Source: Squalus acanthias (Eukaryota). From it: DNA of 64,000 nt. Within the stretch, counting starts at the first letter, position 1. Every line of letters begins with the position of its first letter. The position numbers were made by a program, and so were the translations under genes. The stretch lies in assembly GCA_030390025.1 (NCBI GenBank), contig CM059431.1, positions 111,168,001 through 111,232,000 of the forward strand, read 5' to 3'. Positions 8,656 through 58,369 of this stretch are shown in pieces. A model generated the notes under the pieces. The model saw only the letters and a list, made by a program, of their open reading frames with translations. It was not told where the DNA came from and did not search any database.

Positions 8656-10686
8656 GGGCTGGATGTTGCAGGGGGCCAGCGGGCATGTTCGGTGGCAGGT
8701 CGGGTGAGAAAGCATATTTTTCCCCCAGCAGGTCGGGACCCCGCTGTGAACCCGCCGCCACGCGCCTTTACCAAATGTCGAGTCTGTCAGCGCTAAGCAC
8801 ACCCGAGACGCAGTGGCGGGGGCGGCAATTAAAATCATTAGTGGCTTGTTTACAGCCACTTATCAATGGTTTCTCCCAGCTTTTTGAATTTGACAGGTCG
8901 CCCACCAGTTTCCCGCTGTGCCTAGACCTCGACTGTGAAGCTGAGGCAGGAGGTCAGTAGCCATTGAATCAGCTGATGAGTTGACAGCTTCAAATGTCAA
9001 GTCAAAGCTCCCAGCTGATTGAGAAATGTTCGCTTAACCACTAGCTTCTCTAAACTGCATTTCCACTACAGATTCAGGATGCTGCAAGTCTTTACACAAG
9101 TCTCCATCCAGTCTGACCTCATTACCTCTCCCACCATTGACAGATCGCTTCTGTCATCTCTATTTCAACTGCCATCTATTCCATCAGCATGGGTGCCCTT
9201 GAAACTCTCTCACCCTGGTCCTCAGAATCCCACCATGATCAGCCCCAACACCAGCATCACCAGGCACACCAGCAGCACCAGCACACCAGAAGCACCAACA
9301 ACAACACCAACCTTCTCCGCAATCAACTGATGTTGCACAGGACAGAGGGCATCAGCACCCGACCACATTGTTGCCCGGGAGGCCAGGGATGGCCTCACCG
9401 TGGCCAGATTGACTTCACTTGACGCTGTACACCCTGGTTGCCACATGATGCACCAGGTTGGCACCACCCCACACCAACACCATAAAGCATCCCTACAATG
9501 CCCAAGCCATTCCTTTCACACTCATCACCATTGCAGGGGTCACTGTTATGTCTCACCATTCACTGCAACTCACGAAGCCACTTCCAAAGGTGCACACAAA
9601 TCTGTCCAAGAACACAAAGTGTTGAAAATAAAGGTTTCAATGTTTGACAGCAAATTAAATGAACATTGCATAAAACACCCAAGTGCTTGTATGATTGTAT
9701 TAGGATGAGGGTGAGTGTAAGGGGTAGCTACTGAGAGGGGGATGTGATAATGTAAATAGAGAGGGATGGGTGGAAGTGCAAGGTAAGTTGCTGTGAGTAA
9801 GGATGTGCAGGAGTAGGGTAGGGAAGGCAGAGTGATGGGGATGTGATGAGAGGCACAGCAGGATGAGGTTCAGTGTGGCTTTGTACTAACGTTTCGTGAT
9901 CTACTGAGATAATTGAAATGTTTGCAGCACTGCAACCAGGTCCTCCTGACCACATCCCTGCTTGTGCCCTCTTCTGCAATGTGCAATCACATTGTGTTGA
10001 TCTCCTGGGGAGGTCTCTTCCACCCTTAGGGAAGGGGAGAGGACCTCCCTGTGTGCTGTGACTCCCTCCATAAGCATAATCATATGGAGGAAGTCATGGG
10101 AGAGCCTGGGTGCAGCCCTGCACCTCTGTGCAGTCATTTTCAGTCATAGAGTCACCGGGCTGGATTTTCATAGGGCCATTGAGGTGGGATTGAAGGCGTG
10201 TGGGTGGTTAAAATTGCAGAAACTGGCAGGCGGGCCCGATCCCGCCTCCAGCCCGCCTCCACGCAATTTTGATGAAATCGTGTCTACTAGTCCCGTCTCC
10301 GTCCCGCCTCCAAGAGGCGGGAGAGGCCATTAATGCCCTTAACAAGTCCTAAATTGGCTCTGTAATGCCATTTTGATAGTTTTTTGCTAGTTTAACCCTT
10401 TTCCCACGTGAAGCACGCCTGATCTGAAACACGCCGGTGAAACCTGGCGGGAGCACAAGTGGATTGCTGACTCTCAGCTGCAGCTCAACCATTAAATAGG
10501 AGATTTGATCAGCCATCATTTGCAGGTGGCAGGACTTTGTTGTCACAGGTCTGGGGGAACTTTTAGAAGGCATAACCACAGCTCTGGAAGTTTGGAGCCT
10601 GACACCCATCTCCAGTGTGAGCTCCTGGGAAACCCCTCTCGCCACCCTCATTGAGCGCTTCCTCAACTGAGGCATATACCAGAGGC

Positions 10687-11934
10687 ATGGGAGCGATTTA
10701 TTTCCTTCCCTCCTGGGCAGCAGATGAGGACGAACACCAGCCGTGGCACCAGCAGAACCATGAACAACAGCAGCAACAACAGCAGCAGCAACAGCAGGAG
10801 CACCAAGCTGCTGCTCACCCACCTGAAGCTGCACAGGCCAGAAGGGGCCAGCACATGGAAGGCTGTCGGTGCAGGAGATACCCCCCAAACAGGGTCTACA
10901 GACACAGTGTCAGCTACCTCAACATGTCTGAGCAGCAGTGCCAAAGGCGGCTCCAACTTTCGCGAGAGGTAGTGGGTGACATCTGCGCAATGCTGCAACA
11001 AGACCTGGAGCCCAGAGGACCAGGTGGACACCCCTTACCAGTGGCCGTCAAAGTCACCACCGCACTCAACTTTTTTGCCTCAGGCTCATTCCAGGGATCA
11101 GCAGCAGACATCAGCGGCATCTCCCAGGCGGCCGCACACACCTGCATCACGCAGGTAACCGATGCCCTCTTTGCCATCGCGCACAATCACATCCATTTCA
11201 CCAAGGATCGAGCAAGTGTCACGGCGCGTGCTGTTGGATTAGCTAATCTGGCAGGCTTTCCAAGGGTGCAGGGCATCGTTGACTGCACACATGTGGCCCT
11301 TAAGGCACCCCATTGCAATCCAGGTATTTTTGTCAACCGCAAGGGCTTCCACTCCCTCAACGTTCAGCTGGTGTGTGACCACAAGAAGGAAGTTTTGCAT
11401 GTTTGTGCCAAGTACCCTGGCAGTTGCCATGACTCCTTCATACTGCGCCAGTCTAGTGCGCCTCCGCTATTCAGTCCGCCAGACCAACTTCACGGATGGC
11501 TACTTGGAGACAAGGGCTATCCCCTGAAGACGTGGCTAATGACGCCATTGAGGAGCCCATCTAACGCAGCTGAGAAGAGCTACAACTCCAGCCACATTTC
11601 CACCAGAGCCATAATCGAGCAAACCATCGGTATGCTGAAGATGCGCTTCAGATGCCTGGATAGATCAGGTGGAGCCCTGCAATACTCAGCAGCCAGGGTC
11701 TCCAGAATCGTCGTGGTTTGCTGTGCACTTCACAACATGGCACAGCGTCGTGGCTTGCAGATGCCGGAGAACCAAGTGGCTCCTCACATAGCCTCCTTAG
11801 ATGAGGTGGAGGAGGAGGAGGAGGAGAGAGAGAATGAACAACTTGCAGAGGCCCATCAACCAGCGGTAGCATTACGCGAGACCATAGCTGCCCGGAATGC
11901 AAGGAACGCACTCATCTTGACCAGATTTGCTTAG
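10687..11934 (+). CDS. Harbinger DDE transposase (HARBI1-related family), intact 415-aa ORF with N-terminal polyQ and C-terminal polyE
   Basis: HTH region ([11 protein letters not shown]...GISQAAAH) and catalytic motifs [41 protein letters not shown]; no stops; ATG conserved in copies 2 and 3. Confidence 0.93.
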
Positions 11935-12191
11935 CCTAGACAATCAAGCACTTTTGCCTCGCAGCTTCTTACCAGAGCTAAGACAATGGCCCAGACCCAG
12001 CGGATCCCTAACAATTTGACCACCATACTGACAATTGCAAGTTATCCTAAGGCCTCATTGTGGAAGTCCCATTAGCGAAATGACAGATGCCACAACTGCA
12101 GCTGTAGCCATCAAAGTTTTTATTTACACTTAACACCTGATGGCTTTTTTACATTAAACATCAAATTTCACCCAAGTGACTACCCTTGTGA

Positions 12192-14112
12192 CTATTTGTG
12201 CAGTATCTTTCTCTTACGCGTGCTCCTACGTGGTGCTTCCCCTGTGGCTTCAGCAGAGGTGGAGGCCCCCTGCTCAGTTTGTTGCTGCTCCTGTCTCGAC
12301 ACCTTTGGCAGGCGTCCTCTGGCGTTGCAAACCTGCGAGGGCTCAGCAACAGTCTGCTGCTCCTGCGGCTGGGCAGGGGTTGAGACGCCGATCTCAGTTG
12401 GGTGCGGATTCTGGTAGGGCTCTGACCGAGGACTTGTCAGTGGCACAGAGTGTGAGCGCTTGGAGAGGAGCCCCCACCTCCTTGTTGTCTGCCACCAACA
12501 TCCCTCTCATGGGTCAGGTCCACCTCAGCGCTTGCAAGTGGATTGAGAGCACCTTGCTGCACATCAGGGGGGCCATGGGGACCCGTATCTGCACTGGCAG
12601 TCCTACTCAGAAGGACTTCCATGAAGGTCTGGTTTCTCTGTTCAATAGATGTCCATCGCTCCTCCAGAGATGTCATTCTATTCAGAACACTCACCATGTT
12701 TTCTGCACTCTGGCGACTTATCACCTCCACGGAGGTTGCCATCCTTTCCATGGTGATACGTTCATGCGCCAATGACTCCACAAAGGCTCTGCTCATGTTC
12801 ACTATGGACTCCTCCATTCGCTCCACACTCGCAGCGACCCTGGAGACAAAACCTGTCAGAGACTCCTGCATCTGTTCCTGGAGTTCCAGCACCGCTGATC
12901 TTATGGATGGCCCCAGAGGCAGAGGGTCGACATGCAGCTGAGCCGAGCTAGGAGAGTCCTGCGCCCTCCGACTAGGACTCTCCACTGCTGTCCCTGTCTC
13001 CACCATCTGCTGATGCTCACTTGTGAGCTGTGATACACCAGGTGACAACACTACTCTATGTCCCGAGGGTCCCACCGAGGTGTGAGTCTCTGCGCTGGTG
13101 CTGGGTGCGCTGAATTCTGCTGACGCTGCGCCCTCAGAGGTTGCAGCTTCCTCTGCGGAGTCTGGATACTCAGGCTCTTCCTCCTGGCTAGTGGGGACGG
13201 GTGCTTGTGATGGTCCTGTGGGGGAGCAAAGGAAAGAGTCAGAGATGTGATGCCAAGGTTACATGCACATTGCATATTGCAGATGATCATAAATCCATCT
13301 GTTAGAGCTTCAGATTCATCATCAGCGACTCATGCAATGTCAATGAAAGAGATGGAACACTATTCTGTCACCAGCTTGCTGTGATGCACCCGTCTGTCCG
13401 TCCCCCACTTGCGTATCCTCCTCTACTCCCACGATCTCCAGGACCGCATCCTTCCAGGGGGTGAGCTTGGCTAATGAAGGTGGCCCTCCTCCTGTCCTGG
13501 CTCTTTCCCTTTTATTGTGAGCTCTCTTTTCCTGCAATGAGGGAGACAAGTGGAGTTTGAGTGAGATTGAAGGAGTGAGTGTAGAGAGTCCATAGCATAG
13601 ATGCTTAGAAGGAGACAAAGATGGAGTGAGGTGGCAAGACCAAGGGCCCTCCCTGTGTGTTGTAAGTTGTTTTCATAGCATAACAGTGATAGGGAGTGTG
13701 AGGGCTGCATAGTCGAATAGTAAGGTGAATGTGACCATAAAGGGAGAGGGATGGGTAAGGGTGCATGGATGTCAGTGTCAAGTGGGATATGGAGGAAGAG
13801 GTGCTAAAGCTGAGTGCTGGTGAGGAGAGGCAATGAGGATCAGATTGAGGGTGAAGGGAAAGTCATACTCACTTTTGCAGTGCGTAGAAGGTCATGAAAC
13901 CTCTTTCTGCACTGGAGTCAGGTTCTGCGGGTGATGGATAAACAGATGACCTGCTGGGCGACCTGGACCCACACAGCCTTGGTCTGCTGGGGAGGCTTCT
14001 TCCTCCCTGAGGAGGGGAAGAGCACCTCTCTGTTGGCTCTTGCTCCCTCCACCAAAGCTTGCAGGGCAACGTCATTGAACCTGGGAGCAGACCTGGGTCA
14101 TTGGCTGGCCAT
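12192..14112 (-). pseudogene. Harbinger Myb/SANT-like DNA-binding protein, three exons (14112-13873, 13531-13372, 13215-12192), inactivated
   Basis: Motifs PRF..., W..VA, LQCRKRFHDL, RARTGGGPP; GT-AG introns at the same positions in all three copies; TGA at 14098-14100 and 13918-13920 and a frameshift near 12440. Confidence 0.88.
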
Positions 14113-14465
14113 TCCTCCTGCAGTTGCCTCTAGGATACAGGTCCAAAAGCTTGGCAGCCTGCAGAAGAAGCAAGGCTTGTTGCAGACCTTAAATGCAGCA
14201 GCAATGATGACGTCATCGGAGGTGACTTTCAGACTGGAATAACTCATTGGCCATGGGTTCCCACACGTTGGAACTGAATTGGCCAATTAAGTTAAAATCG
14301 CATCATTCATCCACATCGATCTAGATTCGGGTGGGCAACACGAAAAGCGGATAACCCGACCCCAACCCGCCCCAGTATCAAAATCCAGCCCATAGAGTCA
14401 TAACGGCACAGAAGGAGGCCAGTTGGCCCATCTAGTCCGTGCCGGCTCTCTGTCGAGCAATCCAG

Positions 14466-19485: not shown

Positions 19486-19517
19486 TCCTACATGCTGGTG
19501 CCCATCCCCCTGCCAAG

Positions 19518-20458
19518 CTAGTTTAAACCCTCCCCAACAGCACTAGCAAACCTCCCCGTGAGAATATTGGTCCCGGCTCTGTTGAGGTGTAACCCGTCCG
19601 GCTTGTACAGGTCCCACCTTCCCCAGAAATGGTCCCAATGCCTCAGGAATCTAAAGCCCTCCCTCCTGTACCATCTCTCCAGCCACGCATTCATCTGTTC
19701 TATCCTCCTATTCCTGTACTCACTAGCACGTGGCACCGGGAGTATTCCGGAGATTACTACCTTTGAGGTCCTGCTTTTTAATCTCTTTCCTAGCTCCCTA
19801 TAGTCTGACTGCAGGACCTCATCCCTCTTTCTGCCTATGTCGTTGGTACTGATATGGACAACGACCTCTGGCTGTTCACCCTCCCTCCTCAGAGTGTCCT
19901 GCAGCCGCTCAGTGACATCCTTGACCCTGGCACCAGGGAGGCAACATACCATCCTGGAGCCACGTCTGTGTCCACAGAAACGCCTATCTGTTCCCCTAAC
20001 CAATGAATCCCCTATCACTATTGCTCTTCCACTCTTCTTTCTCCCCCCCTGTGCAGCTAAGCCACCTGTAGTGCCATGGCCTTGGCTCTGGCTGCTCTCC
20101 CCAGAGGAGCCATCACCCCCACCAGTTTCCAGACCTGTGAACCGGTTAGTGAGCGAGATGCACTCTGGGGATTCATGCCCTACCTGCCTGGTCCTCCTTC
20201 TCTGTCTGGTGGTCACCCATTCCCTCTCTGCCTGCATATTCTGAGGTTGCGGGGTGACCACTTCTAGAAACGTGCTTTCCAAGTATTTCTCAGCCTCGCG
20301 GATGCACTGTAGTGACTCCAGCTGCCACTCAAGCTCTGAAATCCGGAGCTCGAGTTGCGGCACTTCCTGCACACATGGTCGTCCAGGCTGCAAGAAGCGT
20401 CCAGGATATCCCACATGGCACAGGATGTGCAAATCATGGGACTGAGCTGCCCTGCCAT
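19518..20458 (-). pseudogene. CR1 ORF1 (CxxC...CxxC zinc finger, leucine zipper, SGNH esterase) with one frameshift near 20360
   Basis: MAGQLSPMICTSC...VCRKC then LELRISELEWQLESL, IVIGDSLVRG, DGLHL. Confidence 0.9.
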
Positions 20459-20557
20459 GCCTCTATTTACCAGACTATGGAGGTAATTTAGCAGAAATAA
20501 ACTGAACAAGAAACACTCAACAGCTACCCACTAATCAGCACTTCCCTCTATTCGATA

Positions 20558-20783
20558 AAAGTGAGAAGTCGCACAACACCAGGTTATAGTCCAACAGCTT
20601 TATTTGAAATCACAAGCTTTCGGAGCGCTGCTCCTTCGTCAGGTGAACAGGTGAACTTCACCTGACGAAGGAGCAGCGCTCCGAAAGCTTGTGATTTCAA
20701 ATAAAACTGTTGGACTATAACCTGGTGTTGTGCGACTTCTCACTTTTGTCCACCCCAGTCCAACACCGGCATCTCCACATCAT
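20558..20783 (+). mobile_element. Penelope-derived palindromic mini-element (inverted pseudo-LTR plus ~35-nt tail)
   Basis: ~90-bp inverted arms; tail and arms match the end of the GIY-YIG element at 36217; TSD CTCTATT(C/A)GATA at 20546-20557 and 20784-20795. Confidence 0.88.
20658..20694 (+). ncRNA. Minimal type I hammerhead ribozyme motif (mirror copy 20610-20646, minus)
   Basis: TCAC-CTGACGA-A-GGAGC AGC GCTCC-GAAA-GC-TT-GTGA: conserved core, stem I TCAC/GTGA, stem II, palindromic AAGCTT stem III. Confidence 0.8.
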
Positions 20784-21449
20784 CTCTATTAGATAGGCTA
20801 TGAACTACTTAGCAGAATTATACTGAAAACAGACCAAAAATAACTTACCACAAATACTCACCCTATACTCACCTCTCAGCTCCCTTGTGCCAGCGACACC
20901 TTTGAATTCTGATGTCACTCCTTCGTTGTGTCGCTTGCTGACTGTCCCCCTCGCAGGTAGTCCGCTCGCTCAGACTCCCAGATCTCTGCTCCGCGCTGCC
21001 TTTAACCCCGGTCTCCAACTCCGTTCCTCCCGCAGGTCCGCTCGCTCAGTGTTTGCAGCCCCTCAATGCTGTAGAACACCGACAGCACAAATGTCAAAAT
21101 TAATTTGGCCCTGGTCCCTTTTAAGGAAAACGGCTGATCAAATGACATCACCAGATCCGCTTCCTCTAATTGGCCGGCAAACACTCTGGGCAGGCTTGAC
21201 AGGCCCAATCAGGAGAAATTCATTTCAGAGGCCGGGAGAGAGACAGCAGCGGGGCCGGGACCCGCCAACCAACGTCGCCACCCCGGACCTTCCGAGGTTC
21301 GTAAAATCGCAGCCAAAGGGTCTATAGCCACACAATCAAAGCCAAGCACTTGAGATATCAGCCACTTTCACTCTAGGTAAATTATCTTTTTTCTTTTTAG
21401 TTCTTGAATGACCTATTGTGTATTTCTATCATTTTCTATATCATATTAC

Positions 21450-29195: not shown

Positions 29196-29686
29196 CAAAG
29201 CTTACATCGTTATTATTAATAACAATTAAGAGTCCATCATACAGTTGTCAAGGAGGTTATCCTTCAGAGCACTTGTTAAAGAATGATCCAGGATTTGTGC
29301 CTTGGAGAATATTTATGACTAGCTTGTAAAACCTTGATTGATTGCCATCAAATGAGTCAAAGAATCACAGGGTCTTATGCTAAGGGATTGAAGAAACAGA
29401 TCCCTTGGGCTCGATTTTGTCATTGGGGCGGGCTGGGGGCGTGTCATCCGCTTTTCGTGTTAGCCACCCGACTCCAATTTGATGTGGGAAAAATATGCGA
29501 TTTTCCCCTAATTGGGCAATTGATTTCCAGCGTGTGGGAACCCCTGGCCCAATTAGTCTTTCCATTCTGAAACTCGCCTCCGATGATGTCATCAATGCTG
29601 CTGGATTTAAGGCCTGCAAGCAGCCTTGCTTCTTCTGCAGACTGCAAACCTTTTGGCCTTTGCTCTGATAGTTTCTTCCAGGCAAA

Positions 29687-31692
29687 ATGTCCAGCAGTAG
29701 ACCTAAGTCTGCACCGAGGTTTGATGACGCCGCCCTGCAAGCTCTGGTGAAGGGAGCAAGAGGGAATAAGGAGGTGCTCTTCCCTTCTTCAGGGAGGAAG
29801 AAGCCTCCCCAGCAGACGAAGGCTGTGTGGATGCAAGTGGCCCAGGAGGTCAACTCGTTATCTATGTGCCGCAGAACCTGGCTGCAGTGCAGAAAGAGGT
29901 TTCATGACCTTCTGCGCACTGGAAAAGTATGACTTTCCCATCACCCTCAATCTGATCCCCATTGCCTCTCCTCACCAGCACTCAGCTTTGACAACCTCTT
30001 CCTCCACATCCCACTTGACACTGACATCCCTGCACCCTTACCCATTCCCTCTCTCTGTATGTTAACATTCACTTAACTATTCGACTATGCAGCCCTCGCA
30101 CTCCCTATCGCTGTGATGCTATGAAAACAACTTATAAAACACAGGGAGGGCCATTAGTCTTGGCACCTCACTGAATCTTTTTTGTCTCCTTCTAGGCATC
30201 TATGCTATGGATTCTCTACACTCACTCCTTCATTCTCACTCAAACTCCACTTGTCTCCCTCATTGCAGGAAAAGAGAGCTCACAATAAGATGGAAAGAGC
30301 GAGGACAGGAGGAGGGCCACCCTCAGTAGCCCAGCTCACCCCCTGGGAGGAGGCGGCCCTGGAGATCGTGGGAGTGGAGGACGATGCGCAAGTGGGGGAC
30401 GGACAGACGGGTGCATCAGAGCAAGCTGGTGACAGAATAGTTTTTCATCTCTCTCATTGACATTGCATGAGTCACTGATAATGATTTTAATGCTCTAACA
30501 GATTGACTTATGATCATCTGCAATATTCAATGTGCATGTAACCTTGGACTCACATCTCTGACTCTTTCCTTTACTCCCCCACAGGACCATCGAAAGCCCC
30601 CGTCCCCACTATCCAGGAGGAACAGCCTGAGCCTCCAGACACTTCAGAGGAAGCTGCAACCTCTGAGGGCGCAGCGTCAGCAGAATTCAGCACACCCAGC
30701 ACCAGCGCAGACACTCACACCTCGGTGGTACCTTCGCGAGATAGAGTAGTGTTGTCACCTGGTGTATCACAGCTCACAAGTGAGCATCAGCAGATGGTGG
30801 AGACAGGGACAGCTGTGGAGAGTCCTAGTCGGAGGGCGCAGGACTCTGCCAGCTCTGCTCAGCTGCATGTCAACCCTCTGCCTCCGGGTCCATCCAGAAG
30901 AAGAGCGGTGCTGGAACTCCAGAAAGAGGTGCAGGAGTCTCTGGCAGGTTTTGTCTCCAGGGTCGCTGCGAGTGTGGAGCGAATGGAGGAGTCCATCGCT
31001 AACATGAGCAGAGCCTTTGTGGAGGCGTTGGCGCATGAACGGATCACCATGGAAAGGATGGCAACCTCTGTGGAAAGGATGGCTACCTCCATGGTAAGGC
31101 TGGCTACCGTAGAGGAGAGGATGGCTATGGTAGAGGAGAGGATGGCTACGTCCATCGAGGAGCTTAGTCGCCAGGGTATGGAAAACATGGCATTGTTCAG
31201 AATAGACTGACATCTCTTGAGGAGCGATGGTTAGCTATTGAGCAAACAAACCAGACCTTCAGGCAAGTCCTCTGGAGTAGGACTTCCAGTACAGAAACGG
31301 GTCCTCATGGCCCCCCTGAAGTGCAGCAAGGTGCTGTCAAGCCACTTACTAGCTCTGAAGTGGGGCTGACCCATGAGAGGGATGTTCGTGGCAGACAACA
31401 AGGAAGTGGGGGCTCCTCTCCAAGCGTTCACACGACCATGCCATTGCAAAGTCCTCAGTCAGAGCCCCACCAGAGTCCCCACCCAACTGAGATCGGCGTC
31501 TCAACCCCTGCACAGCCGCAGGAGCAGCAGACTGTTGCCGAGCCCTCACAGGCTCGCAACCCCAGAGGACGCCCGCCAAAGGTGTCAAGACAGGAGCAGC
31601 AAGAAAGTGATCAAGGGGCCTCCACATCTGCTGAAGCCACAGGGGAAGCACCACGTAGGAGCACACGTAAGAGGAAGATAATGCACAAGTAG
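29687..31692 (+). pseudogene. Harbinger Myb/SANT protein, three exons (29687-29926, 30269-30428, 30585-31692), ~500 aa, single 1-bp frameshift near 31191
   Basis: Exon phases 0 and 1 join in frame; SANT/trihelix motif, RTGGGPP, heptad repeats, basic C-terminus RRSTRKRK; AATAAA at ~31760. Confidence 0.88.
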
Positions 31693-31944
31693 TCACAAGG
31701 GTAGTCACTTGGGTAAAATGTCATGTTTAATGTTGAAAAGTCATCAGTTGGTTATTGTAAATAAAAAATTCTGATGGCAACTGTTGTGGCGTCTGTCATA
31801 TCGCTAATGGGACTTCCACACTGAGGGCTTAGGATGACTTGCAATTGTCAGTATGGTGGTCAGAGTGATAGGAATCCGCAGGTTCTTGGCCATTGTCGAT
31901 GGTCTGATAAGAAGGTGCGAAGCAAAAGTGTTTGATTGTGCAGG

Positions 31945-32171
31945 CTAAGCAAATCTGGCCAAGAGGAGTGCGTCCCTTGCATCCCGGGCAGCAATGTGGT
32001 CGCGCGCTGGCGCCTTCTGGCCTGTGCAGCTTCAGGTGGGTGAGCAGCAGCTTGGCGCTCCTGTTGTTGCTGCTGCTGTTGGTGATGCTGTTGTTCATGG
32101 ATCTGTTGCTGCCACGGCTGGTCTTCGTCTGAATCTGATGTCCAGGAGGAAAGGAAATAAATGGTTCCCAT
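31945..32171 (-). pseudogene. Transposase remnant: polyQ N-terminus fused out of frame to the last ~20 codons
   Basis: Collinear with copy 3 on both sides of a junction at 32006-32014. Confidence 0.9.
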
Positions 32172-33032
32172 GCTTCTGGTATATGCCTCAGTTGAGGAAG
32201 TGCTCATTCAAGGTGGCGAGAGGGGTTTCCCAAGAGGTCACACTGGAGCTGGGTGTCAGGCTCCAAACTTCCACAATAATGGGTATGCCTGCTAAAAGTT
32301 CCCCCAGACCTGAGACAACAAAGTTCTGCTACCTGCAAATGATGATTGCTGAAAACTCCTTTTTAATGGTGGAGCTGCAGCTGTTAGTAAGCATTCTACT
32401 TGTGCTGCCACCAGGTTTCACTGGCGTGTTTCAGAGGAGACGTGAACCACGTGGGAAAAGTGTTAAAATCAGAAAGACCTCTCAAAATGGGATTATAGAG
32501 GCACTTAACTGGTTGTTAAGGGCCTTAAGGGCCTATCCTGCCTCTTGGAGGCAGGATGGAGATGGGATCAGAAAACTCGCATTTGGGAAAATTGCTCGGA
32601 GGCGGGATGGAAGTGAGATCGGGCCCGCCCGCCATTTTTTGCGATGTTAACACCTCACACGCCTCCAATCCCGCCTCCTCAGGCCTGGCAAAATCGAGCC
32701 CCTTGAGTCTGTTATTTGCTGACCCAACCCAAAGATCTCCTGGAGTACATTCAGAGGAGTATTAAAGGCTGTGTAATTGGGGATGGGAGTAATTTGTGCA
32801 CCAGTCCAATGTTTATAATGCACCAAAAATGGGAGATACTTTCTGCAAGAACTTTTTTTTGTTTTAGCCAATGTGTATACATTATACCATCTGACTCAGC
32901 TGTATTCTGGAACACTTGGACCCAGCTCAAACATGATGGAAGGCTGGTGAGAAAACATCCAAATTTATTAGAAAGAAGTACAGAACATCATGGCAGAAGA
33001 GATTGCCAATTACCCTGCAACCTTTCCTTACT

Positions 33033-36000
33033 GGAGTGTTTGCTAGTGCTGTTGGGGAGGATTTAAACTAAAGTGGCAGGGGGTTGGGAACCTGAGCAGG
33101 GAGACAGAGGAAAGGGAAACAAGGATAAAAAGCTAAAGACAGGAAGGAGAAAAACAAAAGTAGAAGGCAAAGAACTCAACGGTTTAAATCAAACATAGTC
33201 ACAGTAAATAATAATTCATATAGGTCTGAGAGCGTTAAAAAAACAAGCCTGAAGGCTTTGTGTCTTAATGTAAGGAGCATTCGGAACAAGGTGGATGAAT
33301 TAGCTGCGCAAATAGAGGTAAATGAATATGATTTGATTGGGATTACAGAAACATGGCTCCAGGGTGGCCAAGGCTGGGAACTCAACATCCAGGGTTATTC
33401 AATATTTGGGAAAGATAGGCAAAAAAGAAAGGGAGGTGGGGTAGCATTGCTGGTTAAAGAGGGGATAAACGCAATTGAAAGGAAGGATATTAGCTCTGAT
33501 GATGCGGAATCTGTATGGGTAGAACTGAGAAATAACAAGGGGCAGAAAACGTTAGTGGGAGTGGTATATAGACCTCCAAACAGTAATACGGAGGTTGGGG
33601 ACGGCATTAAAAGGGAAATTAGAGAAGCATGCAGTAAGGGCACAGCAGTCATCATGGGTGACTTTAATTTACATATAGATTGGGCTAACCAAATTAGTAA
33701 AAATACTGTGGAGGAGGAATTCCTAGAATGTTTACGGGATGGTTTTCTGGAACAATATGTCGAGGAACCAACCAGAGATCAGGCCATCTTAGACTGGGTA
33801 TTATGTAACGAGAAAGGATTAATTAGCAATCTTGTTGTACGAGGCCCCTTGGGTCAGAGTGATCATAATATGATAGAATTCTTCATTAGGATGGAGAGTG
33901 AAGTAGTTGAATCAGGACTAGGGTCCTGAATTTAAATAAAGGAAACTACGATGGTATGAGGCGCGAATTGGGTAGGATTGATTGGGGAATGTCACTCAAA
34001 GGGTTGACGGTGGATAGGCAATGGCAAACATTCAAAGACTGCATGGATGAACTACAGAATTTGTTCATCCCAGTGTGGCATAAGAATAAAACAAAAAGGG
34101 TGACTCAACCGTGGCTAACAAGGGAAATTAGAGATAGCATAAGATTCAAGGAGAGGGCATATAAATTGGCCAGAAAAAGCGGAAACCCTGAGGATTGGGA
34201 GCAGTTCAGGATTCAACAAAGGAGGACAAAGGGATTAATTAAGAAGGGGGAAATAGAATATGAAAGTAAGCTTGCTGGGAACATAAAAACTGACTGTAAG
34301 AGCTTTTATAGATATGTGAAGAGAAGAAGATTAGTGAAATCAAGTGTAGGTCCCTTGCAGTCAGAAGCGGGGGAAGTTATATTGGGGAACAAAGAAATGG
34401 CAGACCAATTAAATGCATATTTTGGTTCTGTCTTCAAAAAGGAGGACACAAATAACCTCCCAGAGATGTTGGAGAACATATGGTCTGATGAAAGGGAGGA
34501 ACTGAAAGAAATCAGTATTTGCAGGGAAATGGTGTTAGGGAAATTGATGGGATTGAAGGCCGATAAATCCCCAGGGCCTGATAATCTACATCCTAGGGTA
34601 CTTAAGGAAGTGGCCCTAGAAATAGTAGATGCATTGCTGATCATCTTCCAACATTCGATGGAATCTGGAACTGTACCCATGGATTGGAGGGTAGCTAATG
34701 TTACCCCACTATTCAAAAAGGGTGGTAGAGAGAAAGCGGGGAATTACAGACCGTTAAGCCTGACATCGGTAGTGGGGAAAATGCTAGAGTCCATTATAAA
34801 GGATGTAATAGCTGAGCACTTGAAAAACAGTGACAGGATCGGACAAAGTCAACATGGATTTACAAAAGGTAAATCGTGCTTGACTAAGCTACTGGAATTT
34901 TTTGAGGATGTAACTGGGAAAATAGATAAGGGAGAACCAGTAGATGTGGTGTATTTGGACTTTCAAAAGGCTTTCGATAAGGTCCCGCATAAGAGATTAG
35001 CGTGTAAAGTTAAGGCACATGGGATTGGGGGCAAGGTATTGACTTGGATGGAGAACTGGTTGGCGGACAGAAAGCAGAGAGTAGAAATTAATGGGTCTTT
35101 TTCCGAGTGGTAAGCAGTGACTAGTGGGGTACCGCAGGGATCGGTCCTTGGACCCCAGCTATTCACAATATACATTAATGATCTAGATAAGGGAACTAAA
35201 TGTAATATCTTCAAGTTTGCAGATGACACAAAGCTGGGTAGGAGTGTGTGCTGCGAGGAGGATACCAAGAAACTCCAGGATGATTTGGATAGGTTGGGTG
35301 AGTGGGCAGAAGTGTGGCAGATGCAATATAACGTGGATAATTGCGAGGTTATCCACTTTGGTGTCAAAAACAGAAAGGCAGACTATTATCTGAATGGCAA
35401 TAGATTGGGAGAAGGGGAAGTGCAACGAGACCTGGGTGTCCTTGTGCACCAGTCGCTGAAGGTAAGCATGCAGGTGCAGCAGGCGGTGAAGAAGGCAAAT
35501 GGTATGTTGGCCTTCATAGCGAAAGGGTTTGAGTATAGGAACAGGGATGTCCTGCTGCAGTTGTACAGGGCCTTGGTGAGACCACACCTTGAGTACTGTG
35601 TGCAGTTTTGGTCGCCTTATCTGAGGAAGGATGTTCTTGCCATGGAAGGAGTTCAGCGAAGATTCACAAGGCTGATACCTGGGATGACAGGAATGACATA
35701 TGAGGAGAGATTGGGTCGATTGGGCTTATACTCGCTGGGGTATAGAAGAATGAGAGGGGATCTCATCGAAGCATATAAAATTCTGACAGGTCTGGACAAA
35801 CTAGATGCAGGAAGAATGTTCCCGATGGTCGGAGAGTCCAGAACCAGGGGTCATAATCTAAGGATAAGGGGTAAGCCATTTAGGACAGAAATGAGAAAGA
35901 ATTTCTTCACCCAGAGAGTGGTGAACCTGTGGAATTCTCTACCACAGAAGGTAGTTGAGGCCAAGTCATTAAATATATTCAAAAATGAGTTAGATATATT

Positions 36001-36155
36001 TCTTAAAGCTAAAGGTATCAAGGGATATGGGGAGAAGGCAGGTACAGGGTACTGAGTTTGGATGATCAGCCATGATCTCATCGAATGGCGGAGCAAGCTC
36101 GAGGGGCCGAATGGCCTACTCCTGCTCCTATCTTCTATGTTTCTATGTTTCTATG
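33033..36155 (+). mobile_element. Young CR1 LINE, 5'-truncated at the end of ORF1; ORF2 has one frameshift (~33915) and one stop (35111-35113)
   Basis: APE and RT ORFs 33258-33929, 33956-35113, 35117-36055; (TTTCTATG)n tail; possible TSD TTACT at 33028-33032 and 36156-36160. Confidence 0.95.
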
Positions 36156-36576
36156 TTACTTGTACAGGGGACAGAAGTGTATCAGTATCAGAGTGCAGGT
36201 GTATTGGTTTATAGTACATGATGTGGAGATGCTGGCGTTGGACTGGGGTGGACAAAAATGAGAAGTCGCACAACACCAGGTTATAGTCCAACAGATTTAT
36301 TTAATTTTACAAGCTTTCGGAGCTGTCGCTCCTTCCTCAGGTAAGTTAGCAGTGAGAGAATCTCCCAGAATTCACAATTTAAACACAGACAAAATCTATT
36401 CAAATATTTCCCTACATCAAAGACACACTAAGAGCACAGCCAAGACAATGAGATGTGGCCCAGGGGGTCCAACGTGTCAAACCACCTGCTGGCTGCATAT
36501 CCTGTCAATTTGTGTTGGTTTCTTGTGTTAGTCTTTTTAAAAATAAACACCTGGGAAGACCGGCCATGATGTCAAG

Positions 36577-37021
36577 TCACGTTCTGTATCGTGACATGAA
36601 CCCGATATCGCGATTGAGGCCATCCTCATGAGTGCGGAACTTGGCTATCAGTTTCTGCTCTATGATTTTGCGCTGTCGTGTATCCCGAAGGCCGCCTTGG
36701 AGGACGCTTACCCGCAGATCCGAGGCTGAATGCCCCTGGCTGCTGAAGTGTTCCCCGACTGGGAGGCAACCCTCCTGCCTGGCGATTGTTGCGCGGTGTC
36801 CGTTCATACGTTGTCTCAGTGTCTGCATGGTCTCGCCGATGTACCATGCTCTGGAGCATCCTTTACTGCAACGTATCAGGTAGACAACGTTGGCCGAGTC
36901 ACATGAGTATGTACCGTGTACCTGGTGGGTAGTGTCCTCACGTGTGATGATGGTATCTGTGTCCATGATTTGGCATGTCTTGCAGAGGTTGCCGTGGCAG
37001 GGTTGTGTGGTGTCTTGGTTG
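36577..37021 (-). pseudogene. Penelope GIY-YIG endonuclease domain (truncated ORF)
   Basis: PC...CKTC, CDSANVVYLIRC, YIGET, LRQRMNGH, VGEHF, GLN motifs. Confidence 0.92.
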
Positions 37022-37208
37022 CTAACACAAGAAACCAACACAAATTGACAGGATATGCAGCCAGCAGGTGGTTTGACACGTTGGACCCCCTGGGACACAT
37101 CTCATTGTCTTGGCTGTGCTCTTAGTGTGTCTTTGATGTAGGGAAATATTTGAATAGATTTTGTCTGTGTTTAAATTGTGAATTCTGGGAGATTCTCTCA
37201 CTGCTAAC

Positions 37209-37246
37209 TTACCTGAGGAAGGAGCGACAGCTCCGAAAGCTTGTAA
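37209..37246 (+). ncRNA. Minimal hammerhead ribozyme motif (element-sense copy 36307-36344, minus)
   Basis: TTAC-CTGAGGA-A-GGAGC GACA GCTCC-GAAA-GC-TT-GTAA. Confidence 0.8.
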
Positions 37247-37644
37247 AATTAAATAAATCTGTTGGACTATAACCTGGTGTTGTGCGACTTCTGGTTTATA
37301 GTAGGTATTGGTACAAAACTGTGACCTGACATTCATATAGGTTGCTACTAGCAGTTATACTATAGGGAACGGACCAAATAACCATTGACTGCTCCTTTAA
37401 GATGTCTTTCTCCAGCTCTTCTCCCTGTGCTTCTTTCCTGTGCCTGGAGGCAATAAAGCACACAAAAACGAGCATAGGATAAAAGAGGGAAAGTAATTTA
37501 TTCTCCAGTGGGGTAGAAGAAAACCCATCAATGTCATAAATGGCTGACAGCCTCTGTCCAAGGCAGTGGTGTCAATCAGCAAGTGATATACCTGGAGACA
37601 GTATTGAGTCTCCACCTTCAACACAAAATTGCTTTTGCACAGAA

Positions 37645-39523: not shown

Positions 39524-40620
39524 GATGAGCTATGGCAGAGGAGGGTAGCCATATTTGGAGCTGAGGGAAATCTTCTTGTGTGCCACCATGTGCAACAAGC
39601 ATGGCAGAAGATGGCAGATCAGGTCAACAATATGTTCCATGTCTGTACATTGTCCAAGCAGATGAAAGAAAGGGTCCCTGGTCTGAGGAAGAGTACTAAG
39701 TCTATGGCCACGATGTAACTGTACCTGTGGTGGAACTTGTTTGGAGGACATGCTCGAGGGGAAGGCCTAACTAGGGGCTAGCTTACTTTGTAAAATGGAA
39801 AGGCCAAGCCAGGTCTCTTCGGACACACCAAGGTGTCTAGGTCCAAGCACTCAGCTCCTGAGAGATGGGAAAGCAGGTGCCAAATACTCCAGCTGCACTT
39901 GTTTCTCTTTCCTCCACAGGAACTCCGCTACCTTCTCAAAATCTAGGTCTGCCACAAAAATGCCCAAAAGAATACTTAAACTAAACAATTTGCTTGTTGC
40001 AAGTGAAGTAGCATCTGTCAGCAAGACTGTTGCGGGGAAAAAATGGGGAAACAGTCTTGTAATGCAAAAAAAATGCTAATAGCAGAAAACAAGAACATAA
40101 TGGACTCGATTTTGCCAGGCCCGAGGAGGCAGGAATGGAGGCGTGTGAGTTGTAAAAATCGCTAAAAATGGCGGGCAGCTCCGATCCCGCCTCCGAGCAA
40201 TTTTCCCACATTCGTGGTTTCAGACCCCGTTTCCATCCCACCTCCAAGAGGCGGGATGGGCCCTTAAGGCCCTTAACTACCAGTTAATAGCCTCTATAAT
40301 CTCATTTTGAGAGACCTTTCTGAATTTAAGACATTTCCCCCGTGCTGCACACCTCCTCTGGAACACGGCAGTTAATCCTGGCGGCCTCACAAGTGGATGG
40401 CTTACTAACAGCTGCAGCTCCACCATTAAAAAGGACTTTTCACCGATGATCATTTGCAGGTGGCAGAACTTTGTTGTCTCAGGTCTGGGGGAACTTTTAG
40501 CAGGCCTACTCATTGTTTTGGAAGTTTAGAGCCTGACACCCATCTCCACTGTGACCTCCTGGGAAACCCCTCTCCCCACATTGACTGAGCGCTTCCTCAA
40601 CTGAGGTATATACCAGAAGC

Positions 40621-41843
40621 ATGGGAACCATTTATTTCCTTTCCTCCTGGACATCAGATTCGGATGAAGACCAGCCGCGGCAGCAGCAGAACCCTGAACA
40701 ACAGCAGCACCAACAGCAGGAGCAACAACAGGAGCTCCAAGTTGCTGCTCACCCACCTGAAGCTGCACAGGCCAGAAGGCACCAGCGCAAGGAAGCACGT
40801 CGGCGCAGGAGATACCCCCAAAACAGGGTCTACAGACAGAGGATCAGCTACCTCAACATGACTGAGCAGCAGTGCCAAAGGAGGCTCAGACTTTCGCGAG
40901 AGGTAGTCGCTGACATCTGCGCAATGATGCAGCAAGACCTGGAGCCCAGGGGATCCGGTGGACACCCCTTACCAGTGGCCGTTAAAGTCACCACCGCACT
41001 CAACTTTTTTGCTTCAGGCTCATTCCAGGGATCAGCAGCAGACATCAGCGGCGTCTCCCAGGCGGCCACACACACTTGCATCATGCAGGTAACCGATGCC
41101 CTCTTTGCCATCGCGCACAATTACATCAACTTCTCCAAGGATCAAGCAAGTGTAACCGCGCATGTGGTTGGGTTTGCCAATCTGGCAGGCTTTCCAAGGG
41201 TGCAGGGCATCGTTGACTGCACACATGTGGCCCTTAAGGTATTTTTGTCAACCGCAAGGGCTTCCACTCCCTCGACGTACAGCTGGTGTGTGACCACAAT
41301 AAGGAAATTTTGCATGTTTGCGCCAAGTACCCTGGCAGTTGCCATGACTCCTTCATCCTGCGCCAGTCTAGTGTGCCTCCGCTCTTCAGTCTGCCAGACC
41401 AACTTTTCGGATGGCTACTTGGAGACAAAGGCTATCCCCTGAAGACGTGGCTAATGATGCCGTTGAGGAGCCCTTCCAATGACACTGAGGAGCGCTACAA
41501 CTCCAGCCACATTTCCACCAGATCCATAATCAAGCAAACCATCGGCTTGCTGAAGATGCGATTCAGATGTGTTGATAGATAAGGTGGAGCCCTACAGTAC
41601 TCAGCAGCCAGGGTCTCCAGAATCATCGTGGTCTGCTGTGCACTGCACAACATGGTACAGCATCGTGGCTTGCAGCTGTCTAAGGTACAAGTGGCTGATA
41701 GCATAGCCTCCTCAGATGAGGAGGAGGAGGAGGACACTGACAACGAAAAGGTTGCGGAGGCGCATCAACCAGCGGCACCAGCACGCGAGCACATTGCTGC
41801 CCGGGATGCAAGGGACGCACTCATCTTGGCCAGATTTGCTTAG
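40621..41843 (+). pseudogene. Harbinger transposase pseudogene
   Basis: 19-bp deletion near 41239 relative to copy 1 (frameshift) and TAA at 41580-41582. Confidence 0.92.
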
Positions 41844-42101
41844 ACTGCACAATCAAACACGTTTGCATCGCACCTTCTTACCAGAGCATCGACAATGGAC
41901 AAGAACCTGCGGATTCCTATCACTCTGACCTCCATACTGACAATTGCAAGTCGCCCTAAGGCCTCAATGTGGAAGTCCGATTTACGAAATGACACAGGCT
42001 ACAATTTCAACAGTTTGCTATCAAATTTGTTTATCATCACAATTCACAGATGGCTTTTCAAAAATCAACACAACAGAACACCCAAGTGACTACCCTTGTG
42101 A

Positions 42102-44080
42102 CTACTTGTGCTTTATCTTCCTCTTATGCGTGCTCCTACGTGGTGCTTCCCCTGTGACTTCAGCAGATGTGGAGGCCCCTTGATCACTTTCTTGCTGCTC
42201 CTGTCTCGACACCTTTGGCGGGCGTCCTCTGGGGTTGCGAGCCTGTGAGGGCTCGGCAACAGTCTGCTGCTCCTGCGGCTGTGCAGGGGCTGAGACGACC
42301 ATCTCAGTTGGGTGAGGACTCTGGTGGGGCTCTGACCGAGGGCTTTGCAGTGGCATGGTCGTGTGAGTGCTTGGAGAGGAACCCCCACTTCCTTGTTGTC
42401 TGCCACCAACATCCCTCTCATGGGTCAGCCCCACTTCAGAACTAGCTTGACAGCACCTTGCTGCACTTCAGGGGAGCCATGAGGACCCGTTTCTGCACTG
42501 GAAGTCCTACTCCAGAGGACTTCCATGAAGGTCTGGTTTCTATGCTCAATAGCTGATCATCGCTCCTCAAGAGATGTCAGTCTATTCTGAACAATGACCA
42601 TGTTTTCAATACCCTGGCGACTAAGCTCCTCCATGGCCGTAGCCATCCTCTCCTCTACCGTAGCCATCCTCTCCTCTACAGTAGCCAGCCTTACCACGGA
42701 GGTAGCCATCCTTTCCACGGAGGTTGCCATCCTTTCCATGGTGATGCGTTCATGCGCCAATGCCGCCACAAAGGCTCTGCTCATGTTCACGATGGACTCC
42801 TCCATTCGCTCCACACTAGCAGCGACCCTGGAGACAAAACCTGCCAGAGACTCCTGCACCTGTTCCTTCTGGATGGACCCGGAGGCACAGGGTCGACATG
42901 CAGCTGAGCCGAGCTGGGAGAGTCCTGCGCCCTCCGACAAGGACTCTCCACTGCTGTCCCTGTCTCCACCATCTGCTAATGCACACGTGTGATCTGTGAT
43001 ACACCAGGTGACAACACTACTCTATCTCGCGAAGGTCCCACCGAGGTGTGATTGTCTGCGCTGGTGCTGGGTGCGCTGAATTCTGCTGACGCTGCGCCCT
43101 CAGAGGTTGCAGCTTCATCTGAGGAGTCTTCAGGCTCAGGCTGCTCCTCCTGGACAGTGAGGACGGGGGCTCTTGATGGTCCTGTGGGGGAGTAAGGGAA
43201 AGTGTTAGAGATGTGAGATAAAGGTTGCATGCACCTTGAATTGTGCAGATGATCATAACTCAATCTGTTAGAGCATCAGAATCATTATCAGTCACTCATG
43301 CAATGTCAATGAGAGAGATGCAAAACTATTCTGTCACCAGCTTGCTGTGATGCGCCCGTCTGTCCGTCCCTCACTTGCGCATCGTCCTCCACTCCCACGA
43401 TCTCCAGGGCCGCCTCCTCTGCATTGGTGAGCTGGGCTATTGAGGGTGGCCCTCCTCCTGTCCTCACCCTTTCCCTCTTATTGTGGGCTCTCTTTTCCTG
43501 CAATGAGGGACACAAGTGGAATTTGAGTAAGAATGAAGGAGTGAGTGTAGAGAATCCATAGCATAAATGCTTAGAAGGAGACAAAGATGGAGTGAGGTGC
43601 CAAGACCAAGGTCCCTCCCTGTGTGTTGTAAGTTGTTGGCATTGCATCACAGTGATAGGGAGTGTGAGGGCTGCATAGCCGAATAGTTCAGTGAATGTGA
43701 ACATAGAGAGAGAGGGAATGGGTAAGGGTGCAGGGATGTAAGGGCGAAGTGGGATGTGCAGGAGGAGCTTGACAAAGCAGAGTGCTGGTGATGAGAGGCA
43801 ATGGGGATCAGATTGAGGGTGATGGGAATGTAATACTCACTTTTCCTGTGCGGAGAAGGTCATGAAACCTCTTTCTGCACTGCAGCCAGGTTCTGCTGCA
43901 CATAGAAATAGCATTGACCTCCTGTGCCACTTGCAGCCACACAGCTTTAGTCTGTTGTGGAAGCTTTTTCCTGCCTGAGGAAGGAAAGATCACCTCCTTA
44001 TTTGCTCTTGCTCCCTCCACCAGAGCTTGGAGGGAGGCCTCATCGAATCTGGGTTCACACTTTGGTCTAGTGCTGGACAT
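42102..44080 (-). pseudogene. Harbinger Myb/SANT gene, three exons (44080-43841, 43497-43338, 43181-42102), inactivated in exon 3
   Basis: Canonical GTGAGT and CAG splice sites; stops at 42976 and 42557 and small deletions. Confidence 0.88.
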
Positions 44081-45943
44081 ACTTGCAGAAGGAATCACTC
44101 AGAACAATGGTCACAAAGTTGTAAGGCTGAAAAGAAGCAAGGCTGATTGCAGGCCTTAAATCCAGCAGCATTGATGACATCATCGGAGGCAAGTTTCTGT
44201 ATGAAAAGGCTCATTGGGCCAGGGGTTCCCACACGCTGGAAATCAAGTGCCCAATTACAGCAAAATCGCACTTTTGTCCCACTTTACATTGGAGTCGGGA
44301 TCCTGACACGACGACCTCCTGACACGCCCCCAGCCCGCCCCCAGGACAAAATCCAGCCCAATGAGTCAATGCAGATATAGCTATCCTAAAAGGGGAAATA
44401 AAAGACTAAACTTTAGATGCCATGGTAAAACATAGCTTTATAAAGGAAACTTCCAATGACCAGAGCCGTGACTCTCAGCAGTCTATTTTATATGTATAAA
44501 CAGTGATAATATAATAAATGTGGAAAAAAAACAGAGAATTCAGCATGGGAGCAATTTTCACAGGGTCGATGCATGGCCTCCAAAAATACGGAACCATTTC
44601 CTGTTGCTAGATTTGGATTTCACAAATCAGGCTTTCAGGCCTACTTGCCCAAAGCAGCAAAGCACGGTCCCAGAATGCACGCATGCATTCAAAGCATGCA
44701 CCATTACTGATTCGGCCGCGTAGTCCTCAAGTGTGTGGCCTGATAACACAACACTGACTTCTTCACAACAATGAAAGCACAAGTTCCAGTTCTGGCATTG
44801 GGTGTATTCAAACCCACTGGTCAAAATATGGGTTGAATTTAATAACACCTGCCAGACAGGGGTTGTGACAGATCAGAAATATGTCGTGTTTCAGATCACG
44901 AAGGACAGCATTTTATGGTATTTTGGTACTTGGCCAGCTGGTGACCTCTTTAATTTGTTTACTGCTGGCTAGCAACAGATGGTCTGGGTGAATATACTAT
45001 GTCGCATGTGCTAATGTCACTTCAAAGGGCTGGATAAGTCACATTTGTATAGGTAGACGACTTAATGAATGTTAATTGCCAAATCCATATTGGTGACAGA
45101 AACACTTAATGAGTTAGTTGGCTGTGAAAAAGAGACAGAGCTAAGTGTTTGTCCCATCAGGAGATCCTACTAGGAAGTGCTCTTGCAGCTTGTCCTTGTC
45201 CGAGAAAGGGTAGATGTCTGGAAACAGATTTCTGGGTAACCAGCCTGATACTATTGAATCCAACTGTGAGTGACAGTTCTATTCAATGGTGAAAGATACC
45301 TTTTTTAATATCTCTTTGTCTCAGTTTGAATTTCAAAGCAAAGATTTGGTATAACTATTAAGGCTTTTTAATGAGTTTCTGCCTCACCAGGCTGTTAACA
45401 AGTGAGGGTTAGCAGAGACACTGCATGAATATTCAATATCTTGTATAAACGTCACATTACTGAATCTGATTTTAATTAGGTGTCATTATGGAGAACCTCA
45501 AGGACGTTGAAACTATTATTTTAGGAATAGGAACTGTAAGTTTAAGTAAAATTTGGCTGCCTTGTGATATCTGTGATATTTGCTCTTGCTTTTGCTAAAT
45601 TCAATTGTTAATAAATTTGATTTATAGTTTATAGTCAGAGATGGATGGGCTGCCAGGATGTTACTTGTTCATCTATCAACGAGATCCAAGAATATGAGGC
45701 GTCTCATACTATATACCGTGTACTTATCAGCAGCCTTATGAATGTACGAAAATGACGGGCAGAAAAAGACCAGCTGGTCCATCAAGCCTGCCCCACAGCA
45801 CGTGGCTAAACAGTCCTTCCCCCTCCCTCCTTCCCTCCCCGCCACCACCAGCCAACCCCCAGCCCCCTTCTGCCCCGCCACCTCACACCCACCTGCAGCC
45901 ATGTACACTCCTGGGAGAGGGCAAAAAACCCAGAAAAGACCTA

Positions 45944-46682: not shown

Positions 46683-46724
<42 letters not shown>

Positions 46725-56627: not shown

Positions 56628-58369
56628 GGCCGGAATTTTGCCGGCTCTCAGAGGGTGGGTTTGGAGGCGGGTAGGAAACGCACTGTCAGCCCGCCTCCAT
56701 GCGAGTCTCCCAGGTGCCGAGTCTGTCAGCGGAGAACTGACCCGACACCAAGCGGCAGGGGATAGAATTGAGCTCATTCAATGGCTTGTTAAGAGCCAAT
56801 TTAAAACTATTTTGAGGCTTCATTCCCAATTTTACGTTCTCCCCACGGGTTACCTGCTGCTCGGGGAACACGCCAGCTCACCCTGGCGTGAGTTGAGTCT
56901 GCTCTGATGTTTCTGATAAGCTGACAGCTGCAGAAGTGGTGTAAAGGATGCCATGTTGCAGATGGTCAGTTTCAGAGCGCAGAAACTTCTGGTTACTTCA
57001 TTTGCAATACATATAGAGATTTCTTTAGCTTGCAAGTGTTTAGAGGCAACTGTATGTTCAGTGCCACCTCATTGAAACAACCTCTCTCACCATTGACAGA
57101 TCGCTTCTATCATCTCACCTGCAGCTGTCATTTATTGCAACATCGGTGCCCTTGAAAAAATCAGACCTTGGTTCTCTGAATCCTTCCACGATCAGCTCCA
57201 ACACCAACATCACCAGGCACACCAACATCACCAACCTTCTCCGCCATCACCTGATGCTGCACAGGACACAGGGCATCAGCCCTTGACAACATTGATGCCC
57301 GGGAGGCCAGCGATGGCATCAGCATGGCCAGATTTACTTCACTTGACGCTGTTAACCCTGGCTGCCACATGATGTGCCAGGTTGACACCATCCCACAGCA
57401 GCACCGTGAAGCATCCCTTTAATGTCCAAGCCATTCCATGCACACTCATCACTATAGCGGGGGGGGAGGGGGGCGCGGAGTTATGTCTGAACATTCACTG
57501 GAACTCAGTAAGACACTTCTTAATGTGCGCTCAGATCTGTCCAATAAGGGACAGTGATGGAACAATAGATTTCACTGTATGACAACACATTACCAGAAAC
57601 TTCACATGGACATTGGCTAAACCTCTCAAGTGCCTATCCTTATGTGTTGTTAGTTGGTATGCTTGCAGTAGGATCAGGGTGAGTGTGAGGGGTGGCTACT
57701 GAGATGGGGAAGTGATAGAGAGGGTTAGGTGGAGGTGCAAGGTAAGTTGGTGTGAGTAAGGATGTGCAGGAGAAGGGTATGGAAGGCAGAGTGATGGGGA
57801 TGTGTTGAGTGGCACAGCAGGATGAGTTTGAGTGTGGCTTTGCAGTAATGTTTCGTGATCCACTGAGATCATTGAAAGGTTGGCGCCACTGCAGCCAGGG
57901 ACCCCTGACGACATCCCTGCTTTTGCCCTCCTATGCAATGTGCAACCAGGCTGCGTTGCTGTCCTGGGGAGGTCTCTTCCGCCCTTGGAAGGGAAGAGAT
58001 CCTCCCTGCATGCTGTGGCTCCCTCCATAAGCATATGGAGGGAGTCATTTGAGAGCCTGGGTGCAAACGTCCACCTTTGTGCAGTGCTTGTCAGTGTTTG
58101 CAGCACCTCAATGCTGTAGAACACTGACACAACAATTGTTAAACTCAATGTGGACATGGTCCCTTTAAATAAACCGGCTGATGACGCGTCATCAAATGAC
58201 GTCATCAGACCCACTTCCTGTTAATTGGCCGGGAAGCCCGCAGGGCGGGTTTAACAAGGCCAATCAAGAGAAAATCCCTTTGACAGAGCAGCTGCAGCCA
58301 GGATCGTGACTGGAACCCAGAAACCAGCTCTCCCGCCACCATCCCGACACTGCTGATAAAATCATGGCC
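56628..58369 (+). mobile_element. Non-autonomous Harbinger deletion derivative (1742 bp), same family as 8656
   Basis: TIR GGCCGGAATTTT / AAAATCATGGCC; TSD TTA; fused transposase remnant (~57140-57345) and Myb exon-1 remnant (~57850-58095, minus). Confidence 0.88.

Follow-up and report, generated by a model that had tools for sequence, protein, structure and literature searches.

A shared transposase-deletion junction in divergent PIF/Harbinger elements of the shark Squalus acanthias

In the mosquito Tc1/mariner element Ozma, the Gnome, Elf and Goblin MITEs arose by internal deletion between microhomologies of 6-8 bp, and the accessible part of that report ascribes their births to abortive gap repair and then MMEJ, with amplification of the families thereafter (PMC3814204). 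The PIF/Harbinger elements of Medicago truncatula and mPing/Ping belong to the same superfamily as the shark elements considered here (PMC2213677, PMC3814204, PMC10288884). As far as the available text of these sources goes, the non-autonomous members of both groups derive directly by deletion, under a model of abortive gap repair, and are mobilised in trans by ORF1/Myb together with the transposase (PMC2213677, PMC3814204, PMC10288884). For cartilaginous fishes, the available portion of one survey reports that no Harbinger was found in the elephant shark, true sharks lying outside that survey (PMC9179366).

The shark elements resemble the described systems in several respects. As in Elf, one break falls within the transposase ORF and the other a short way ahead of the stop (PMC3814204). 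For the mariner-like MITEs of aphids (PMC5490172) and Rhodnius (PMC4678618), the accessible sections likewise describe microhomology, exact or nearly so, at most breakpoints, together with deleted lineages common to several species and non-random deletion regions. The Ozma families, in contrast, are described as stemming from different breakpoints of one parent, against one register in two shark lineages ~35% apart, and the shark products, which measure 1.7-3.3 kb and one of which retains a Myb gene, are unlike the Ozma MITEs (PMC3814204). Unlike the shark case, breakpoints also differ among the aphid and Rhodnius mariner-like sublineages, where the text available indicates regional clustering (PMC5490172, PMC4678618), and among the mPing subtypes, which break within a narrow region with 0-2 bp of homology (PMC3814204, PMC10288884); the portions of text available for Medicago and mPing/Ping describe no base-identical junction across subfamilies (PMC2213677, PMC3814204, PMC10288884). 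In the literature covered, outside which most subscription papers fall, no report was found of two Harbinger lineages sharing a deletion identical to the base, nor of these shark elements. The repair mechanism is already known, and the identical register across two lineages is the unusual part. Work by Rubin and Levy in 1997 and by Negoua et al. in 2013 may also be relevant to recurrence.

Harbinger elements of the window

The window, that is, the whole 64-kb stretch of DNA analysed, contains seven related TIR elements, comprising the full-length copies 1 and 3, the deleted copy 2, elements A and B, and the short elements D and E (Table 1). These elements belong to the PIF/Harbinger superfamily, since the transposase ORF of copy 1 matches the Pfam family DDE_Tnp_4 and the first exon of the second gene of copy 2 encodes a Myb/SANT domain (Myb_DNA-bind_5); they have short TIRs and 3-bp TSDs, the triplets of which agree in six of the seven elements (copies 2 and 3, A, B, D and E) and not in copy 1. 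In the same Pfam search as copy 2 exon 1, the degenerate Myb exon of element B matched no family. Among the 120 listed of 396 protein matches, the nearest transposases are chondrichthyan proteins named 'putative nuclease HARBI1', which are 55-64% identical, come from sawshark, sevengill, horn, bamboo and white sharks, and point to a shark host; these 120 include no protein close to the copy 1-3 lineage.

Copy 2 measures 3.3 kb and elements A and B ~1.75 kb each, all with coding remnants. MITEs are short (under about 800 bp) and devoid of coding remnants, and neither copy 2 nor A nor B falls in this class on account of length and coding remnants. Rather, they have the features of non-autonomous deletion-derivative families, in that both ends are kept, the transposase is gone and many copies share one junction.

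Element A is interrupted at 10145-21045 by ~10.9 kb of nested insertions, namely copy 1 and several LINE fragments. In A (9415-9753) and B (57340-57714) the Myb gene after exon 1 is also gone, a second common deletion whose junction would take a full-length A-type element to place. Elements D (46202-47018) and E (61622-62301) are short copy-1-type derivatives with other breakpoints and simple-repeat filler, and represent a separate MITE-like family; further short elements that share the TIR start and are mutually related lie at 45944-46201, 47018-47607, 59654-60472 and 63501-63998. The window also harbors two LINEs (33033-36146 and 49466-52579) in inverse orientation to each other and 97.9% identical, one with a 740-aa ORF, which we take to be CR1-like, and a 1-kb element (36261-37292) in which 271-bp inverted repeats (99.6%) enclose a 174-aa frame, presumably GIY-YIG/Penelope-like from its appearance.

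Table 1. Coordinates of the elements, genes and junction features in the window.
Feature	Position	Strand	Remarks
Element A, left part	8656..10156	+	junction at 9348-9356; without transposase core and without Myb exons after exon 1
Copy 1, full-length, nested inside element A	10157..14391	+	transposase frame open; Myb gene broken; no match between the flanking triplets
Copy 1, open transposase ORF	10687..11934	+	PF13359 DDE_Tnp_4, E 9.7e-37
Element A, right end	21046..21314	+	TIR, TSD AAA; displaced by nested insertions
Copy 2, deleted, TIR-to-TIR	29407..32701	-	TSD AAG; Myb/SANT gene kept, one frameshift in last exon
Copy 2, Myb/SANT exon 1	29684..29926	+	PF13873, E 1.3e-10
Copy 2 junction, single repeat copy	32006..32014	-	alignment to copy 3
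Copy 3, full-length Harbinger	40102..44359	+	TSD AAT; transposase broken by 19-bp deletion and stop
Left copy of 9-bp repeat	40778..40786	+	directly after Gln-rich N-terminal tract of transposase
Interval absent from copy 2, A and B	40787..41782	+	996 bp; holds DDE domain
Right copy of 9-bp repeat	41774..41782	+	directly after Glu-rich tract, 58 nt before transposase stop
Element B, TIR-to-TIR	56628..58369	+	TSD TTA; junction at 57272-57280; layout as in A, 71.5% identical to A

The deletion junction and its repeat

The first-pass annotation had listed seven 9-mers around the deletion, all of which were found by direct check where it had placed them. In alignment, copy 2 corresponds to 40099-40788 of copy 3 joined to 41774-44361, and thus lacks exactly the 996 bp between the two repeat copies, while A and B carry the same junction, as established by ungapped alignment to both sides. 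The missing interval had been described as spanning both HTH and DDE regions; the whole DDE_Tnp_4 match does lie inside it, but Pfam gave no HTH family. In the copy 2/3 lineage the repeat is present at both parental breakpoints (nine exact bases in copy 3), with one copy left at the junction, and among the window elements it is seen as a pair in copy 3 only. Copy 1 had been presented as an intact transposase with both repeats degraded, and in agreement with this its transposase frame is open and its two sites (10844-10852 and 11865-11873) differ at five of nine positions. Its Myb gene, however, is broken by an early stop and a late frameshift, and copy 1 is therefore not autonomous on its own. 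The copy 3 transposase has lost 19 bp at 41236-41237 (11303-11321 in copy 1), which shifts the frame; the ends of the lost segment overlap by three bases, AGG.

Copy 3 contains 46 exact direct repeats of at least 9 bp with a spacing of at least 200 bp, and hence a 9-bp repeat by itself is not unusual; ten repeats of at least 8 bp would excise the core yet leave the Myb gene. The focal repeat is GC-rich and GGCAYCAGC-like, with a few extra matching bases around it. In copy 3 the focal pair ranks ninth of 601 as an exact repeat, first of 598 as a 21-nt hybrid and between second and eleventh of 588-7805 under 21 other window/seed settings, and lies within the top 1-2% by hybrid stability. The notion that it is the strongest repeat of the element, true in one setting and false in the 21 others, was discarded. 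Since repeats decay quickly, with only two of the 46 copy 3 repeats still exact in copy 1, the long persistence of the focal repeat is surprising. The point needing explanation is the occurrence of the same register in elements just 63-66% alike, not the presence of a 9-bp repeat.

For the A/B lineage, the nature of the parental sites can be approached through sawshark proteins, which come from decayed copies with long branches in the tree. Protein P0024 terminates in M-A-S-A, which fits the A/B 9-mer at the right site; the left site of this protein can match the right one at seven of nine positions at best, while P0046 and P0042 have I-P-P-A, a match of ~6/9. The homology shared in the A/B lineage may hence be merely 4-7 bases, and a perfect ancestral repeat in the A/B parent would also be compatible with the sawshark proteins. 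At the right site, four of the five sawshark C-termini agree with copy 3 and not with copy 1. An ancestral status of the copy 1 right site, which resembles that of sawshark P0031, was rejected because of these C-termini and because the core tree puts P0031 outside copies 1 and 3.

The junction in other shark genomes

Contigs from four runs bearing four organism labels (of 24 runs listed) were aligned to copy 3; the best run share was 0.56, and no run was therefore taken as containing copy 3 itself. The focal junction accounts for eight of the 15 joints listed, beyond which lie 453 weaker joints, and for 43 of the 63 contigs of the listed rows, and it appears in all four runs. After counting filler letters, four of the eight focal rows verifiably net 996, the other four having filler of unknown content, and an exact 9-base overlap at the junction was seen in 13 contigs. 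The seven remaining listed rows show 0-2 bases of homology, save one 42-bp tandem-unit change. In 44 contigs of run X5 and nine of run X16, the latter possibly RNA but uninformative on expression, the A-type left flank continues at 41774, and three sawshark gene models (P0046, P0121 and P0122) cross the A-type junction in register. A genome-wide scatter of junctions had been named beforehand as evidence against a favored site; the best-supported joints are instead concentrated at the focal junction, but the weaker ones indicate that scattered rare deletions exist.

Given the many contigs and the three sawshark models, both deleted forms are amplified families and not per-copy events. The dominance of one joint does not count events, because amplification of one founder gives it. 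The A-type deleted form, being shared with a distant shark, the sawshark, is either old or recurrent again.

Several side results accompany these data. The pieces of A-type deleted elements included in P0121, P0122 and P0046, one of them as the C-terminus of an immunoglobulin-superfamily model, reflect either exonisation or annotation error. A rarer joint, from 40788 to 42445 (two contigs, two runs), reuses the left break with another right end and nine filler letters. The last Myb exon contains a 21-bp tandem repeat of variable copy number (42623-42712), with 84 bp missing in copy 1 and loss of a 42-bp unit in other genomes. The repeat positions are absent among 40 listed of 2471 letter differences, which are thus uninformative on the family consensus. 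A scan for the junction pattern returned no instance in metagenome contigs and none in prokaryote genomes, and a transposase scan of metagenomes gave 592 candidates, none of them confirmed. Junction-spanning frames compared with proteins (longer proteins only) yielded 0 of 109 and 0 of 321 candidates; the second comparison missed the known positive P0046, and neither blank is given any weight.

Origins of the shared junction

The earlier description of the copy 2 flanks as close to copy 3, with A and B sharing substitutions of their own, was borne out. Copy 2 is 88.9% (5' flank) and 92.1% (3' flank) identical to copy 3, against 63-66% identity between A/B and copies 1-3, and A and B split from copies 1-3 at 100/100 in the tree of the left flank and in that of Myb exon 1, on either side of the deletion. 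Judged from these sequence comparisons, A/B and copies 1-3 are separate lineages. In a tree of the transposase core (21 rows, 19 of them picked from the 120 listed matches), copies 1 and 3 are united (100/100) to the exclusion of 12 sawshark proteins; among these, P0024 bears A-type sequence at its N-terminus and P0046 after the stop (63% over 49 aa). Full-length members occur in both lineages (copies 1 and 3 in one, sawshark proteins with A-type ends in the other), and more than one origin of the junction is therefore favored. A single deletion would demand either repeated recovery of the core or a heterologous tract of very small length, and we infer from the sequences that at least two origins would be the simpler reading. 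The claim that the deletion is recurrent and not inherited once stands to the extent that more than one origin is favored, but just two founding events followed by amplification are needed.

We consider it probable, with considerable room for doubt, that two founding deletions arose by microhomology-mediated gap repair at a long-lived repeat and that each then spread in trans. A GGCAYCAGC-like, GC-rich direct repeat would have flanked the transposase core in the common ancestor of the two Harbinger lineages. Upon excision of an element, repair of the gap with a sister or ectopic copy as template would have been aborted, and the two new strands would have annealed at the repeat, a microhomology-mediated joining through which ~1 kb would have been lost. 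At least two such deletions would have occurred independently, an early one in the A/B lineage, with a product also present in sawshark, and one in the copy 2/3 lineage; each deleted product, having kept both TIRs, would have multiplied in trans as a non-autonomous family. A built-in conversion of autonomous elements, as put forward by the first-pass annotation, or a frequent one, is not required here, since two founders and amplification suffice and one of the founders is common to sawshark. Its suggestion that degraded repeats protect the transposase concerns a single element (n=1); copy 3, with both repeats still in place, was inactivated in another way, through the 19-bp deletion (3-base overlap) and stops. 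For an element-directed deletion process, no support was found.

It is less likely, although conceivable, that there was one ancient deletion and that recombination brought its junction into the copy 2/3 lineage, either with a deleted copy of the abundant A type as a short bridging template in gap repair or through flanks of the old deleted family overwritten by copy-3-type conversion; the perfect repeat of copy 3 could then be the product of exchange with deleted copies and not the cause of the deletion. A single deletion would account for the exact register without a repeat outlasting two long branches, which only two of 46 repeats did as far as copy 1, and it fits an A-type junction that is old and abundant. 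Recombination among copies 1-3 is evident from their mosaic structure, as Myb exon 1 (43704-44060 and homologs) places copy 2 with copy 1 (98/94) while the surroundings of the junction resemble copy 3. Furthermore, a C at +16 is shared by copy 2, A, B, P0121, P0122 and one joint row (in its filler), against a G in copies 1 and 3 and in P0042 of sawshark; with the deleted copy within P0046 lacking the C, it is common to five of six deleted copies across both lineages. One such common site among ~30 is, however, expected by chance at ~5-10%, as estimated from the rate of copy-2-private sites. Between -45 and +76 around the junction, at sites where A and B agree and differ from copy 3, copy 2 has the copy 3 base at 21 and the A/B base at three, two of which are merely copy-3-private changes. 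Copy 2 also bears own-lineage bases at -6, -1 and +12, the last between the junction and +16, and any A-type tract would hence be limited to the repeat itself; homologous repair between sequences 65-75% identical with a tract of <12 nt is atypical. Conversion of copy 2 from A/B, which had been anticipated as grounds for abandoning recurrence, is accordingly unlikely in its simple form, but copies 1-3 do recombine.

The low survival of repeats between copies 3 and 1 is the best argument for some exchange via deleted copies. In an extended and quite improbable form of such exchange, the junction would be self-perpetuating: deleted copies, being homologous to both ends of the core, would keep the sites alike in full-length elements, or bridge them, so that every autonomous subfamily newly arising in this shark Harbinger clade would spawn the same transposase-less, Myb-bearing derivative.

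Independent deletions could also have been placed by stalling of repair at CAG-rich/GAG-rich tracts, combined with layout-selective amplification, the repeat being incidental or fine-tuning the join, which we regard as very doubtful. Low-complexity tracts, coding for Gln and Glu, do precede both sites, and the rarer joint from 40788 uses the left break without the repeat. In 12 of 21 settings, pairing of the right site with the Gln tract at 40677 is as good or better, although none of the 15 listed joints is of this kind, and mPing subtypes, in the available text, break within one narrow region with little homology (PMC3814204). Regional fragility would nevertheless yield clustered and not base-identical junctions, while all verifiable rows net 996 and the A-type junction lies in the same register; A/B also lost most of the Myb gene, leaving no common selected product evident, and the junction peptide has no recognised domain. 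Loss of the interval as an intron via reverse-transcribed spliced RNA, or its excision by transposase at cryptic ends, would give an exact, repeatable junction, and both repeat copies end in CCAGC(G/A)C, comparable to the right terminus CCAGCCC, but both models are largely refuted at the sequence level and scarcely credible, since GT-AG, GC-AG or AT-AC ends occur in none of 12 registers on both strands, purines and not a pyrimidine tract precede the right site, CCAGCNC occurs ten times in copy 3 (both strands) and the two sites are direct and not inverted.

With two founding deletions as the preferred reading, a base-identical junction in two old lineages, in very many copies and in several shark genomes, would constitute a natural replicate in which repair bias can be told apart from selective amplification and from templating by older deleted copies, whereas the birth of non-autonomous families and the predictability of breakpoints are usually argued from single cases. 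If everything came down to two very old events, the biological consequences would be small; if the junction were self-perpetuating, deleted families would template their own re-creation across lineages and over a very long time. For the classification of transposon subfamilies, the junction calls for caution, in that a common deletion junction is not proof of shared descent.
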